Source of the DNA: an uncultured Bifidobacterium sp.
GTDB taxonomy: Bacteria > Fibrobacterota > Fibrobacteria > UBA11236
Assembly (NCBI GenBank): GCA_964555105.1
Contig: CAZKRC010000005.1
Coordinates: 1 to 36,574, forward strand
Direction of reading: 5' to 3'
DNA: 36,574 nucleotides
The notes under the pieces were generated by a model, which did no database searches, was not told where the DNA came from, and saw only the letters and a program-made list of their open reading frames with translations. The translations under genes and the position numbers were made by a program. Each line of letters opens with the position of its first letter. The first letter of the stretch is position 1. Below, one piece after another: positions 2,929 through 8,015 of the stretch.

Positions 2929-4845
2929 CTACAGGCTGCGGATCCGCTGCTCGTCGAAGCCGTGCTGGCGTAGAATAGCGGTGAGATTGGCTTTGGAGGC
3001 CTCGTCGGCAAAGGCGTCGTCGCGGAAAACGACGGTACTTTCACTTTTCGGAGCGATTTGCTGCCGCCATTCGGCAATACCGAGCGCGAGCGGTTCAACG
3101 TCCTTGCGGCTGATTGAGGCGGCGAGGCAGGCGAAGAGCGTTCCCTCGCCTGCGTTGCGCACGGTTTTCCCGGTGATGGTTTTTTCTTCGATGGGTGACG
3201 TCAGATCAATGCCGAGGCGCAGGAGTAGTTCAGAGAAAATGTCCGTTTCGCTCCGGTCCGGCTTGATGTGGGTGACATGATCAAGGAGGGATTTTTCCAG
3301 ATTTTCAGGTTTGGAATCCCAAGTGCGGATATTGCTGCTGTCGAGCTTGAACACGCGGAAGCCCGTGTCGCCCTTCCAGTCGGGATTCTCCGCCTTGATC
3401 TTTGCACCCGCGCGCCGGAGGCGCTCTTTCGTCAGTTCTGCGATAGTGTGCGGTTTTCCTATTGAATCACAGAAATCTGCGGCGGCTTTTTGGTCGCTGC
3501 TTTCAATGTCTAGTGGCTCTGGTAACTGCACGACGATATAGCGTCGTGCTCCCTGATCTTTGAAGTTTTTGCTGATAACTGCGTGGCCGAGGGAGCCTGA
3601 GCCCGCAAAGAAATCAAGAATGATATCCTTATTTGATGACGCTACCGAAAGTATTTGTGACAAAAGACGGACAGGCTTCGGAGAGTCGAAGCTGTGAATA
3701 CCGAGTGCTTTAACTTCTTGCCTAGCCTCTTGGTTGTGCCCTACATCGGTATGTTTCCAGATAGTCAACGGTACGATTCCGCTTTTAAGTTCTGACAAAA
3801 AAGTCTTGATGCGGGGGACGTTATTTCCGCTCTTTCCAAACCATATCCGATTGTCGGTTAACAGCTCTTGAACTTTATGCTTTGGCATTGACCAGCAGCG
3901 TCCCTTAGTCGGGAAAATTTCTTTTCCGGAAGGAGTGATTATCGGGTAGTCGTAGGTGGCGCTATATGTGCGCACAGTCATATCCGAAGACGCCCACGGC
4001 CCCCTGGGGTCGTTATCAGGGTTAGAAAATCGCCCCTCGTCACCGGCTCTTCGTTGGATTTTCTGAGGGTTCCATGCCTGCTTCGACTTGGCGTAGATGG
4101 CAATGTAGTCGTGGTTGTCGCTGAACCATTTGGCGTCGTTCTGTGGAGCGAATTTTTTTTCCCAGATGATTGTTGCCACAAAATTTTCATCACCGAATAC
4201 TTCGTCGCAGACCTGACGAAGTCTAGGGTATTCCGTGTCGTCAATACTGATAAATATTGCCCCGTCCTCTTGTAGCAGATCACGTGCAGCTTTCAGGCGT
4301 GGATACATCATGCTCAACCAATTCGTGTGGTATCTACCAGATGTTTCCGTATTCGAAGAAGTAGCCTTCCCGTCCTCAGTCTGCCCGGTCAACTCCTTAT
4401 AGTTCCGGATCCCATCCCTGAAATCATCCGGATACACGAAATCCTTGCCCGTGTTGTACGGCGGATCGATGTAGATGAGTTTCACCTTGCCTGCGTAGCT
4501 CTTCTGCAGCAGCTTCAGAACCTCAAGGTTGTCCCCCTCGATCATCAGGTTCTTCGTCGTATCCCAGTCCACGCTTTCATCCGGTGCCGGGCGTAGCGTC
4601 CCACGTGAGGGAGTCAACGCAAGCTGCCGAGCCTTGCGCTTTCCGAACCAGTTCAGCCCGAACTTTTCATCAGCATCGGTGACAGTCTGGTCGCCCACCA
4701 GCTGTTTCAGGACATCCACATTCACCGAAACGCCCCGCTCACCCTCTGTCACCAGCTCCGGAAACTGGGCCTGCAGCCGTGCAACGTTCGTAGCCTGCCT
4801 TTCGGCCACGCCGCCATCGGAGGGGGAGGGGAAAAGTTTGAGCAT
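2929..4845 (-). CDS. mod: Type III DNA methyltransferase Mod subunit (N6-adenine, beta-class motif order)
   Basis: 638-aa ORF with ATG at 4845. Catalytic motif IV IYIDPPYNTG (aa 124-133) lies N-terminal to SAM motif I DFFAGSGSLGHA (aa 411-422), with about 280 aa between them as the target recognition domain. EGDNLEVLKLLQ box is present. Confidence 0.9.
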   Translation of the reverse strand: MLKLFPSPSDGGVAERQATNVARLQAQFPELVTEGERGVSVNVDVLKQLVGDQTVTDADEKFGLNWFGKRKARQLALTPSRGTLRPAPDESVDWDTTKNLMIEGDNLEVLKLLQKSYAGKVKLIYIDPPYNTGKDFVYPDDFRDGIRNYKELTGQTEDGKATSSNTETSGRYHTNWLSMMYPRLKAARDLLQEDGAIFISIDDTEYPRLRQVCDEVFGDENFVATIIWEKKFAPQNDAKWFSDNHDYIAIYAKSKQAWNPQKIQRRAGDEGRFSNPDNDPRGPWASSDMTVRTYSATYDYPIITPSGKEIFPTKGRCWSMPKHKVQELLTDNRIWFGKSGNNVPRIKTFLSELKSGIVPLTIWKHTDVGHNQEARQEVKALGIHSFDSPKPVRLLSQILSVASSNKDIILDFFAGSGSLGHAVISKNFKDQGARRYIVVQLPEPLDIESSDQKAAADFCDSIGKPHTIAELTKERLRRAGAKIKAENPDWKGDTGFRVFKLDSSNIRTWDSKPENLEKSLLDHVTHIKPDRSETDIFSELLLRLGIDLTSPIEEKTITGKTVRNAGEGTLFACLAASISRKDVEPLALGIAEWRQQIAPKSESTVVFRDDAFADEASKANLTAILRQHGFDEQRIRSL

Positions 4846-4854
4846 CTGGATTAA

Positions 4855-4971
4855 GTTCGCTTTAGCGAACCAACCATGTAGCCAACCCCTCCCGAACCTT
4901 CAAGGCTCGCTATAGCGAACTTAAGGCGCCGTTTTCGCTCCCTGGAACCCTTCAGGTTCGCTTTAGCGAAT
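4855..4971. promoter_or_regulatory. Three phased 16-bp palindromic operator-like sites in the divergent mod / XRE-gene promoter region
   Basis: GTTCGCTTTAGCGAAC at 4855-4870 (perfect 7-2-7 palindrome), GCTCGCTATAGCGAAC at 4905-4920, GTTCGCTTTAGCGAAT at 4956-4971. Centre-to-centre spacing is 50 and 51 bp. Sites 2 and 3 share the 5' flank GAACC(C)TTCA(A)G. Confidence 0.55.
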
Positions 4972-5016
4972 TTCAATCCGCCCAAAACCCCCTAAACTTG
5001 CCCTTAACAGGGGCAC

Positions 5017-5556
5017 ATGATCACTTTACAGGAACTTTTGGGCGCGCGGATCCGGATCTGCATCGAGAAAAACGGTTACCGCACCGTCGAAGAGTTCGCC
5101 TTTGCCTTCAGCATCGGAAAATCCACCCTGAGCGACATCCTCACCGGCAAAAAGAGCCCGACGGTGACCACCCTGGCGCGCTGGGCCAATGCCCTGGGCA
5201 TCCCCCTTGCCGCCTTCTTCGAGGATGAGCGCATCAACACGTGGGTGCGTGAAACCCCGCCCGATTATTTCCAGAATCGGGAAAGACCGTCGGGCGGTCC
5301 CGCCGGAGCGGAGGGGGCGAAGAAGTCACCCCGCTCCCCCCGGGCCCCTCGGGTCCCTAAAGCGCCAAGACGGCTCAGGCCCTCCGAAGGCGCCCTCAAG
5401 GGCCCGGCTTCACCCCCGAAAAAACGGGCCGCTTCCAAAACGGCGAAAGCCACGAAAGCCACGAAAGCCACTAAGGCCGCTAAGGCCACTAAAGCTGCTA
5501 AAGCCGGAAAGACATCCCGGAAAAGAGTCGCGAAGAAAAGCGGTCGCAGGGCCTAG
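5017..5556 (+). CDS. XRE-family helix-turn-helix protein with C-terminal Lys/Ala/Pro-rich histone H1-like tail; candidate R-M controller protein
   Basis: N-terminal 70 aa match the HTH_XRE pattern (LGARIRICIEKNGYRTVEEFAFAFSIGKSTLSDILTGKKSPTVTTLARWANALGIPL). The C-terminal ~100 aa are basic and low-complexity (PRSPRAPRVPKAPRR...AKATKATKATKAAKATKAAKAGK), encoded partly by seven 9-bp repeats at 5443-5505. ATG at 5017. Confidence 0.8.
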   Translation: MITLQELLGARIRICIEKNGYRTVEEFAFAFSIGKSTLSDILTGKKSPTVTTLARWANALGIPLAAFFEDERINTWVRETPPDYFQNRERPSGGPAGAEGAKKSPRSPRAPRVPKAPRRLRPSEGALKGPASPPKKRAASKTAKATKATKATKAAKATKAAKAGKTSRKRVAKKSGRRA

Positions 5557-5592
5557 AAGCGCTTGGAGACGTCTGGAGACGCCCGGTTACAC

Positions 5593-5796
5593 CTAGCCGT
5601 GTTCCTCGTCCGCGCGCGCCACCCGCGGCTTGGACTCGCGCAACTCCTCGAAGAACACCTGAACGAAGACGCGTAGAAACACCGCCACGGTGCGGGCGTA
5701 AAGCGCCGTCAGCCCCGCGAGGCTGAGCAGCACGACCGTCCAGGCCAATGTCCGCGTAAGAGAGCCTTCGGTGCGTGCATGATGCCGGTTGAACAT
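5593..5796 (-). CDS. Small (67 aa) predicted single-pass membrane protein, unknown function
   Basis: Internal ATG at 5796 of track ORF 5593..6012, preceded by GGGAGGAG 4 nt upstream. Product MFNRHHARTEGSLTRTLAWTVVLLSLAGLTALYARTVAVFLRVFVQVFFEELRESKPRVARADEEHG has one clear hydrophobic helix. The upstream part of the track ORF is not protein-like. Confidence 0.45.
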   Translation of the reverse strand: MFNRHHARTEGSLTRTLAWTVVLLSLAGLTALYARTVAVFLRVFVQVFFEELRESKPRVARADEEHG

Positions 5797-6832: not shown

Positions 6833-7162
6833 GCTCGTCTCCTGGATGAAGGGGGCAAATGTCAGCCGTGCGTTGCGCGACGGGAAGTCCCGTCTTCAAC
6901 CTACACGGATCATGGTGTCCGGGCCGCAATCGTCACGCTCGATTACATACGGTAACACGGAGCCGGGGGAACCGGCGGAACCGGGGGAGCTGGTGGGGGA
7001 GCTTGCCCCGGGCGGAAAGTCGGGGGCAGCCATGACGCCGACGCCGGAGCTCCGCCCGGAGCAAGGGGTGGCACGGTCCGACGGGTGTTTGCTAGAATGC
7101 ATGCGGGAAGACCGCACGCGCGGATTCCGGCGCCCCCGTAATCCTTTTCCCCCGGAGTCTCC

Positions 7163-7771
7163 ATGTCTTCCGCAGTGTCTTCGTCCGCATTCCGGTCCGC
7201 TCTTCCGCCGTCATCTTCCGTTCTGATGCTTCCGGGTTACGGAGGCTCGGGACCGCAGCATTGGCAGACCTTGTGGGAGAAAGAGCATCAGCGCTTTCGT
7301 CGTGTCGAGGCGCGCGACTGGGACCACCCGGTGAGGGGAGAGTGGGTGGGCAACCTGGAGGCTGCCGTGGCTGCCGCGCAGGGTGACGGGCCCGACGTGG
7401 TTCTGGTGGCGCATAGTCTGGCGTGTCTGCAGGTGGCGCATTGGGCGGCCGTGACGCCCTTGACGCATGTGACGACGGTGAAGGGAGCGCTGCTCGTGGC
7501 GCCACCCGACCCCGAGAGCCCCGCGTTCCCGCCCGCCGCGGCGGGCTTCACCCCCCTGCCTCTGTCGCCCCTTCCTTTTCCCTCGATCCTGGTGGCCAGC
7601 ACCGATGACCCGTACGCCTCCACGGCGTTCAGCGAACAGTGCGCGCATGCCTGGGGTTCGCGCCTGGTGTTCATCGGCGCGGCGGGTCACATCAACGCCG
7701 CCAGCGGGGTGGGGGAGTGGGAGGAGGGCAAAGTTCTCTTGGGGGAGCTTTGCCTCTCAATTAAGAGTTAA
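7163..7771 (+). CDS. Alpha/beta serine hydrolase of the YdeN/RBBP9-like family
   Basis: LMLPGYGGSGPQHWQTLWE N-terminal box, nucleophile elbow VLVAHSLACL, then ASTDDPY and GAAGHIN (Ser-Asp-His order), about 200 aa. GGAG sits upstream of the ATG at 7163. Confidence 0.75.
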   Translation: MSSAVSSSAFRSALPPSSSVLMLPGYGGSGPQHWQTLWEKEHQRFRRVEARDWDHPVRGEWVGNLEAAVAAAQGDGPDVVLVAHSLACLQVAHWAAVTPLTHVTTVKGALLVAPPDPESPAFPPAAAGFTPLPLSPLPFPSILVASTDDPYASTAFSEQCAHAWGSRLVFIGAAGHINAASGVGEWEEGKVLLGELCLSIKS

Positions 7772-7808
7772 GAATTAAGAATGGGGAGTGGGGAGTGGGA
7801 GTGGGGAG
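7761..7808. repeat. Heptamer tandem arrays (TTAAGAR)x3 followed by (TGGGGAG)x4
   Basis: ttaagag ttaagaa ttaagaa at 7761-7781 overlaps the hydrolase stop codon at 7769-7771. tggggag tggggag tgggag tggggag at 7782-7808 gives four G-tracts with 3-nt loops, which fits the G-quadruplex consensus. Confidence 0.9.
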
Positions 7809-7865
7809 CGGAAAGGCACGAGGTCGCAGAAGGCGAACGCGTCATTAGGAATGGATCGCAAGGAA

Positions 7866-7905
7866 CATCACAGCATCACAACATCACAGCATCACAACAT
7901 CACAG
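7866..7905. repeat. Octamer tandem array (CATCACAR)x5
   Basis: catcacag catcacaa catcacag catcacaa catcacag, read directly from the sequence. Confidence 0.9.
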
Positions 7906-8015
7906 CAATAGAACGCAGGGAGGTGTGAATTGTCTGTGCGTTGTGTCGTAAGGTCCAAGGCACTTGAACAAGCAAGGCACCTCAATATCCCATAAAGCCA
8001 GCATTCAGTATCTGT

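Follow-up and report, generated by a model that had tools for sequence, protein, structure and literature searches.

A candidate C-protein-like controller of Type III restriction–modification with a polycationic tail in uncultured Fibrobacterota-type bacteria

What does a small DNA-binding protein with a long, strongly basic tail do beside a restriction–modification (R-M) operon? This question is raised by an open reading frame (ORF) at positions 5017–5556 of contig CAZKRC010000005.1 (GenBank assembly GCA_964555105.1), from which a stretch of 36,574 nucleotides, hereafter called the window, was analyzed as a whole. The ORF lies on the forward strand and encodes a protein of 179 aa, the translation of which is the same as the sequence quoted in an earlier reading of this DNA made from its letters (the sequence-only reading). 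That reading described the product as an XRE-type helix-turn-helix (HTH) domain joined to a histone H1-like tail, and supposed that it resembles the controllers of R-M systems and could spread or bridge between three upstream operators or act like a xenogeneic silencer. Little is understood of how the transcription of Type III R-M systems is controlled. Here we argue, with a confidence slightly better than even, that the protein is a controller of a Type III R-M operon resembling the controller (C) proteins of Type II systems, and that its polycationic tail provides affinity for DNA. The controller-like role, as predicted below, is well supported by comparative evidence.

The N-terminus of the protein is an XRE-type HTH domain, as had been proposed. 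In Pfam, residues 22–65 matched HTH_3 (PF01381) with 38.5 bits against a cutoff of 23, and the cutoff of HTH_31 was also passed (27.2 against 27). The AlphaFold2 model, which was computed with the family alignment, has helices at residues 4–18, 24–30, 35–43, 50–60, and 64–68, i.e., the five-helix fold of lambda repressor-like proteins, plus an extra helix at residues 71–79, with predicted local distance difference test (pLDDT) values above 90. Foldseek matched the regulator to ClgR, SinR, C.BclI, and C.AhdI with target TM-scores of 0.6–0.8. The fold is a generic XRE fold with C.BclI, C.AhdI, and C.Esp1396I among its structural matches, and the matches to C proteins (E about 1e-2, 18–23% identity) were no better than those to ClgR or SinR; a profile search of PDB sequences matched only generic HTH_3 proteins.

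The probable targets of this domain are found upstream of its own gene. Every orthologue is preceded by a 16-bp palindrome, GTTCGCTwwAGCGAAy, in which two GTTCGC half-sites lie one helical turn apart. The three copies in the window are the sole matches in its 36.6 kb, where 0.32 would be expected by chance, and no further copies were found elsewhere in 225 kb of loci or in the rest of the window. Orthologous loci possess one to three palindromes: the proximal one is centered at −50 to −55 in the 13 loci measured, and the distal copy lies 27–51 bp beyond it. Conservation of the half-sites goes hand in hand with that of the recognition helix, also at a locus that encodes a tail-less homologue (L012) and in a distant relative (L026). 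The assignment of the three palindromes as putative operators, which was made in the sequence-only reading, was strengthened by their presence upstream of every orthologue; as in C-protein systems, they precede the regulator's own gene and are conserved with the protein, and binding to them is predicted from sequence. The window also contains a 29-nt direct repeat (4894–4922 and 4945–4973) with its copies 51 bp apart and the middle palindrome within one of them, which shows that the third box arose through a local 51-bp duplication. Between the proximal box and the start codon, the columns of the CCCCTAnnnTTGCC block are invariant in a 12-locus intergenic alignment (A2). No sigma-70-type promoter was found in 4750–5750, the promoters of the host phylum being uncharacterized, and the Bacteroidota-type TAnnTTTG motif was not enriched in the window.

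The genes that face the regulator constitute an intact Type III R-M system, in which a Mod protein with an N6_N4 methyltransferase domain is followed by a Res protein with helicase and endonuclease domains. This arrangement recurs: the regulator gene is located in or next to an R-M cluster, as C-protein genes are, in 13 of the 15 informative independent loci (the window included), with either divergent Mod and Res genes or a helicase–DUF4391–Mod–Res set as its neighbor and with at least five different downstream contexts. A divergent Mod (+Res) is found upstream in the window and at L007, L012, L013, L014, L015, L020, L021, L022, and L023; a four-gene set for an HKD+Snf2 helicase, DUF4391, Mod, and Res is found at L018; and the start of the same helicase gene as in L018, followed by the contig end, is found at L010 and L024. 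The four-gene operon (795–6866 of L018, about 1–2677 of L010, and 1–44 of L024) stands beside the same regulator and palindromes; its helicase corresponds to the PADLOC candidate C3a139, and its Mod is Type III-like. At the two other loci, either no R-M genes occur upstream (L003) or only a remnant does (L002): in the latter (1031–1165), the Res–Mod block is gone, a short segment with an integrase (rve_3) fragment is present instead, and 129 nt of the mod 5' end are left beside the orphaned regulator. In 10 of the 11 Mod-first loci (the L002 remnant is counted, and L022 is the exception), mod starts 4–9 nt beyond the distal box, measured from its outer edge; because mod abuts the operator in this way, there is no room for an independent mod promoter outside the operator region.

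The cassettes beside the regulator are of diverse types. The Mod proteins form four groups that are 25–35% identical to each other and that do not follow the HTH tree; from one Mod group to another, the Res proteins can hardly be aligned. The loci L013 and L015, which have different Mod types, are 98% identical in nucleotide sequence along a stretch of 3.35 kb that starts 1 nt ahead of the distal box, includes the HTH gene, and extends to AhpC; the homology between the window and L015 likewise starts at 4855, where the distal box begins. We conclude that the regulator and its operators act as a conserved unit, next to which one Type III cassette is replaced by another. The mechanism of an exchange so precise at the distal palindrome (L013:671, L015:6890, and 4855 in the window) is unexplained; operators at the far ends of the cassettes were considered as recombination sites, and none was found in 225 kb of loci. 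Cassettes of different specificity have the same boxes, which makes it unlikely that control works through methylation of the boxes.

The model that we favor is as follows. A dimer of the XRE-type regulator would recognize each 16-bp palindrome. Because the proximal palindrome is located about 20 bp upstream of the invariant promoter-like block of the HTH gene, autoregulation of this gene is implied. Protein on the distal palindrome may occlude the transcription start or the leader of mod and would thereby repress the mod–res operon, repression being the presumed direction of control. The protein would thus be a functional analogue of C proteins, for Type III systems and with a repressor-type geometry, and the regulator with its operators would be a resident module, with unrelated Type III cassettes exchanged beside it at a junction that coincides with the distal operator's outer edge. 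Where a DNA-binding domain bears a basic disordered tail, the tail confers non-specific electrostatic affinity for DNA. The tail of this protein may accordingly speed up the target search, prolong residence on the target, and make contacts with flanking DNA, and its charge of +27 per monomer could neutralize roughly 13 bp of DNA backbone. Nothing was found in favor of a qualitatively new function of the long tail. The features on which this model is built are listed in Table 1.

Table 1. Features of the regulator locus, in order of position in the window
Feature	Position	Strand	Basis or remark
Type III restriction subunit (Res), 910 aa	178..2910	-	Pfam ResIII, DEAD, RE_endonuc; NCBIfam Type III endonuclease; PADLOC REase_III 1114 bits
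Type III methyltransferase (Mod), 638 aa	2929..4845	-	Pfam N6_N4_Mtase; PADLOC MTase_III 768 bits; start 9 nt from distal palindrome
Distal palindrome GTTCGCTTTAGCGAAC (putative operator)	4855..4870	.	Boundary where homology with R-M-swapped relatives starts
Middle palindrome GCTCGCTATAGCGAAC (putative operator)	4905..4920	.	Extra relative to orthologues
Proximal palindrome GTTCGCTTTAGCGAAT (putative operator)	4956..4971	.	Centered 53.5 nt before HTH start codon
Invariant CCCCTAnnnTTGCC block, candidate core promoter element of HTH gene	4989..5003	+	Only such match in the window
XRE-type HTH domain and conserved WVRETPPDYFQNR motif (aa 1-92)	5017..5292	+	Pfam HTH_3, AlphaFold2 helices, orthologue identity
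Disordered polycationic tail (aa 93-179, net +27)	5293..5553	+	Composition, AlphaFold2, conserved islands
SPRSPRAPRVPKAPRR segment	5326..5373	+	Read directly from sequence
Seven in-frame 9-bp units, (A/T)KA x7	5443..5505	+	Tandem Repeats Finder and direct reading
Conserved small membrane-protein gene, convergent to HTH gene, in syntenic host backbone	5593..5796	-	Orthologues at same position in L001, L015, L018, L023, L024, L025

Several observations weigh against this model. The operator sequence, the spacing of 27–51 bp, and the gene order differ from those of characterized C-protein systems; of the controller-like claim in the sequence-only reading, the R-M link (13 of 15 informative loci) has held, but the operator layout and gene order turned out to be unlike those of classical C-protein systems. 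Given the uncharacterized promoters of this phylum, the protein might activate the operon rather than repress it. Tail length is uncorrelated with the number or spacing of the operators: every long-tail locus in the initial set had 50-bp spacing, and the idea that the two go together was rejected when L024 was found to combine a long tail with 34-bp spacing and L014 a short tail with 50-bp spacing. The tail evolves fast, as described below, and the 1.7-kb contig of L026 has no visible R-M genes. Lastly, the regulator gene is kept without R-M genes at L003 and after the R-M deletion at L002, and the host-like codon usage and AhpC-like divergence of the HTH gene could indicate a host regulator with other targets.

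The last of these points is the starting point of the most serious alternative, which we nevertheless regard as unlikely: the protein may be a core, autoregulated housekeeping regulator of the host that is located beside an integration hot spot, so that R-M cassettes merely land upstream of it and are not regulated. The GC content at third codon positions (GC3) is 0.77 in the HTH domain and 0.77–0.88 in host genes, versus 0.67 in Res and 0.62 in Mod. HTH and AhpC diverge in step (89 vs 92, 82 vs 83, and 78 vs 77%), and the synteny glyQS...HTH-AhpC-Ser_hydrolase-ABC...Mfd is stable; the backbone common to the window and several relatives consists of the HTH gene, the small membrane gene, AhpC, Ser_hydrolase, an ATP-binding cassette (ABC) gene, a methyltransferase, SurA, a rotamase, and Mfd. 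Retention of the gene at L003 and L002 also fits this alternative. However, at least four further chromosomal contexts (L007, L012, L014, L021, and L022) have the same HTH–operator module facing Mod–Res, and the abutment of mod on the distal operator in nearly all Mod-first loci is likewise at odds with cassettes that land there without being regulated. We therefore retain the C-protein-like controller as the favored reading.

Some other features of the neighborhood deserve mention. The gene at 5593–5796 encodes a 67-aa putative membrane protein with the motif LYARTVAVFLRVFVQVFFEELR, which matched no known family. In L022, the HTH gene is directly followed by a RES-domain toxin gene (7378–7800) without the usual Xre_MbcA_ParS_C antitoxin, and L020 has a complete ParS_C+RES pair inserted at the same place (7084–7946). 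An unrelated second HTH gene, which might be a cassette-borne regulator, is present at the far (Res) end of three cassettes (1555–1914 of L015, 939–1322 of L021, and 1046–1477 of L023). The cassette of L021, which belongs to the Mod group of the window, also contains a GGACT/AIG2-family gene between mod and res (4334–4843).

We next ask whether the basic tail is peculiar to this protein. A search of 5.8 billion proteins yielded 41 homologues with a nearly invariant recognition helix, and the HTH region (residues 1–92) is 76–97% identical among orthologues. A W-V/I-R-E-x-P-P-x-Y-F-x-N-R motif (WVRExPPxYFxNR) is conserved after the HTH and is followed by the basic tail; all family members but one have the near-invariant HTH, the motif, and a basic tail, and the L012 protein (54% identical) is tail-less. 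In 38 members, the post-motif tail has a median length of 24 aa (range 13–115) and a charge of about +0.35 per residue, with acidic and hydrophobic residues almost nil. Most members have tails of only 13–40 aa, six members including the window protein have long tails, and those of about 90–115 aa are confined to one clade. The next tier of distant relatives (95–117 aa) also consists of an HTH followed by a short K/R tail, from which it follows that the basic tail is ancestral to the family and that the window protein represents an expanded version. The combination of HTH domain and tail is a trait of the whole family and no one-off fusion. One of the distant relatives, at L026 (2–577), comprises two tandem paralogues with HTH and basic tail, preceded by a GTTCGCCTTGGCGAAT box and followed by an O-methyltransferase-like gene.

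The family of the window protein is small and without a name, and its members come from uncultured Fibrobacterota-type bacteria. An exhaustive profile search of 1.84 billion cluster representatives returned only three at E <1e-30, a scan of metagenome contigs found two loci only, and the source databases offer no name beyond "transcriptional regulator with XRE-family HTH domain". No RNA runs containing the sequence were listed. A plasmid- or phage-borne family was rejected, as sequenced plasmids gave only generic XRE matches of <40% identity and sequenced phages gave none. The named relatives come from Fibrobacteria or Fibrobacteres metagenome-assembled genomes (MAGs), apart from two records with discordant labels. 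Among the contigs of related MAGs (loci L008 and L010), three are labeled Fibrobacteria/Fibrobacteres, one "uncultured Bifidobacterium", and one "Sumerlaeota"; the gene neighborhood is common to all, which suggests that the discordant labels are binning or labeling errors.

The tail itself corresponds to its first description as a strongly basic, low-complexity region with seven 9-bp units, as judged by its composition, its charge, and an exact reading of the units. Residues 93–179 consist of 24% A, 21% K, 13% R, and 11% P, and the final 50 aa of 30% A and 28% K; like the tails of H1-like proteins, it is a Lys/Ala/Pro-rich basic region of low complexity. From about residue 85 to the C-terminus, the AlphaFold2 model has no secondary structure and a pLDDT of about 50–60. 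We take the SPRSPRAPRVPKAPRR segment to resemble the SPKK/SPRK-type minor-groove motifs. The 9-bp units at 5443–5505 are, in order, GCGAAAGCC, ACGAAAGCC, ACGAAAGCC, ACTAAGGCC, GCTAAGGCC, ACTAAAGCT, and GCTAAAGCC, which encode AKATKATKATKAAKATKAAKA; Tandem Repeats Finder gave a period of 9 bp, 6.8 copies, and 84–88% matches for this array.

Because frame +1 is also open across the tail, the open frame is weak evidence of its translation, and comparison with orthologues is decisive. The islands PRVPK, RRLRP, and LKGPxxPPKxR and the C-terminal KKSG..RRA-stop are common to the window protein and its closest orthologues (L015, L002, and L013; 58% identical overall). Of 80 aligned tail residues, 42 are identical with the orthologues, 25 of these by synonymous codons, and every length difference among the four tails preserves the reading frame. 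The in-frame islands, the synonymous changes, the conserved C-terminus, and the in-frame indels together show that the tail is translated; an untranslated tail or a miscalled ORF was ruled out on the first three of these grounds. The codon differences between L015 and L002 are 13 synonymous and 17 non-synonymous in the tail, versus 10 and 3 in the HTH domain, which marks the tail as coding sequence under much looser constraint than that of the HTH domain.

Such loose constraint invites a second alternative, which concerns the tail only and which we consider quite unlikely: only a short basic segment proximal to the domain would matter, and the extra 60–90 aa, including the 9-bp repeats, would be a nearly neutral low-complexity expansion produced by slippage and tolerated because the region is disordered. 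In addition to the fast evolution and the many indels, the GC3 of the tail (0.64) departs from host usage, and in-frame arrays of different units occur independently in the window (9 bp × 6.8), L024 (9 bp × 5.6, encoding VSK), L025 (12 bp × 3.6), and L015 (12 bp × 1.9). The last of these coincides with an 8-codon indel relative to L002, i.e., a slippage-type change between close relatives, and the tails of the long clade grew by independent in-frame tandem duplications of lysine-containing units. A soil metagenome (run X1) that contains the exact window at a depth of about 10 also contains a more abundant related strain (depth about 32); compared over 5080–5639, this strain shows about 32 differences in the HTH domain (5080–5296), mostly spaced in multiples of three, and a tail region of 425 nt versus 342 nt in the window strain, a difference in length that fits the neutral alternative. 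Nevertheless, each of the six long tails carries a charge of about +0.25 to +0.33 per residue, its acidic and hydrophobic residues being almost nil, the islands and the C-terminal KKSG..RRA are kept through synonymous change across proteins that are only 58% identical, and every indel keeps the frame, all of which speaks against this alternative.

The array of the window differs in this respect from those of its relatives. It is absent from the orthologues L015, L002, and L013, it is identical in contigs of two unrelated metagenomes (X1 and X2), and further contigs end within it; no copy-number variation was seen in these assembled contigs, among which rare variants could have escaped notice. 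The suggestion of the sequence-only reading that the 9-bp repeat number varies by slippage was therefore not supported for this array, although slippage-type length changes do occur in orthologous tails.

A more speculative reading, which we hold to be improbable, combines the exchange of cassettes with the growth of the tail. The locus would be a resident docking-and-control platform, in which each swapped-in mod–res cassette comes at once under a pre-existing regulator, and the expandable H1-like tail would coat or bridge DNA in the vicinity or entering the cell, or sense its load, so as to silence the new restriction system or to time its onset. If this were true, such cassette exchange with built-in control would have no described counterpart among R-M systems. 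The least probable of the readings is a nucleoid-associated or xenogeneic silencer-like factor that nucleates at the operators, spreads, and bridges or compacts DNA, thereby silencing the R-M island or acting genome-wide: the H1-, AlgP-, and Hc-type composition of the last 50 aa, the GC content of the R-M island, which is lower than that of host DNA, the placement of the three operators about 50 bp apart in the window, and the precedent of Streptomyces DdbA, described in PMC3643593 as an H1-like region fused to a regulatory domain, would suit it, but the tails of most family members are short, tail length is uncoupled from operator number and spacing (L024 and L014), so that bridging or spreading between operators found no support, no homology to any H1, Hc1, or Hc2 family could be detected for the tail, the operators occur at this single intergenic site only, and nothing that we found speaks for xenogeneic silencing.

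If the favored reading is true, a conserved dedicated regulator with defined operators would provide a C-protein-like layer of control for Type III systems, and the resulting model would be simple and testable, comprising two divergent promoters and two or three boxes of 16 bp. That cassettes are swapped at the operator hints at a way for bacteria to acquire a new restriction specificity without losing the control circuit. In addition, the family offers a natural series in which one DNA-binding domain carries basic disordered tails of 13 to 115 residues, and it could be used to examine what polycationic tails do to the target search of a bacterial transcription factor, to its affinity, and to its cooperativity. 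In our view, the H1-like composition of the tail is of less interest than a controller specific to Type III systems and the swapping of cassettes at the edge of the operator.

Among known systems, the nearest are the C proteins of Type II R-M systems (C.PvuII, C.AhdI, C.Esp1396I, C.BclI, and C.Kpn2I), which are likewise small XRE-type HTH proteins encoded next to R-M genes, with palindromes upstream of their own genes. They differ from the regulator described here as follows: its partner is a Type III mod–res operon; its gene is monocistronic and divergent from mod–res, with res downstream of mod, whereas theirs are co-transcribed with the endonuclease gene from a C/R promoter; and its boxes are of different sequence and 27–51 bp apart, whereas theirs form an adjacent OL/OR pair over that promoter. 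Moreover, we know of no C protein with a basic disordered tail. Roadblock action and repression of the methyltransferase gene are also known for some C proteins (reviewed in PMC12707154). Reviews of R-M regulation (PMC12707154 and PMC3874152) describe C proteins for Type II systems and one Type I locus, and for Type III only translational or antisense control and phase variation. The Type I case, the C-family regulator of the Mycoplasma gallisepticum hsd locus, is similar in that a C-type HTH gene stands beside a non-Type-II R-M system, and it appears to repress the whole operon, as summarized in PMC12707154. It differs in the type of R-M system and in its position upstream in the same orientation; a basic tail is not reported in that summary, and no sequence relation to the window protein was apparent as far as the two were compared here.

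The tail invites comparison with the H1-like proteins, namely Chlamydia Hc1/Hc2, Pseudomonas AlgP, the tails of actinobacterial HupB/HupS, and Streptomyces DdbA, all of which have disordered, strongly basic Lys/Ala/Pro-rich repeats. The length of Hc2 varies through repeat number, according to PMC2848022, and in DdbA, according to PMC3643593, the H1-like region is joined to a regulatory domain. Unlike these, the tail of the window protein contains 13% Arg, is attached to a presumably site-specific HTH with a single known target region, and has counterparts in the family that are mostly about 24 aa in length. A Pfam search with the tail alone at E up to 10 returned no family except a spurious match to DUF6465, and a search of 5.8 billion proteins gave no tail homologues at E up to 1e-3; on these results, a common origin with H1, Hc1, or AlgP was rejected. 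The likeness that the sequence-only reading drew to H1, Hc1, and AlgP thus holds for composition and not for descent.

A third group for comparison comprises CapH (of CapH/CapP) and BrxR/CapW, which are small DNA-binding repressors encoded divergently from defense operons and acting on palindromic operators. The N-terminal domain of CapH (7t5u) was among the fold matches. The regulator described here differs from them in having no partner protease, WYL sensor domain, or known inducing signal, and in its association with Type III R-M rather than with the cyclic oligonucleotide-based antiphage signaling system (CBASS) or bacteriophage exclusion (BREX). Taken together, these comparisons suggest that the protein is of a known kind, that of the C-protein-like controllers, and that what is new is its probable service to a Type III R-M system and the polycationic tail that it carries.

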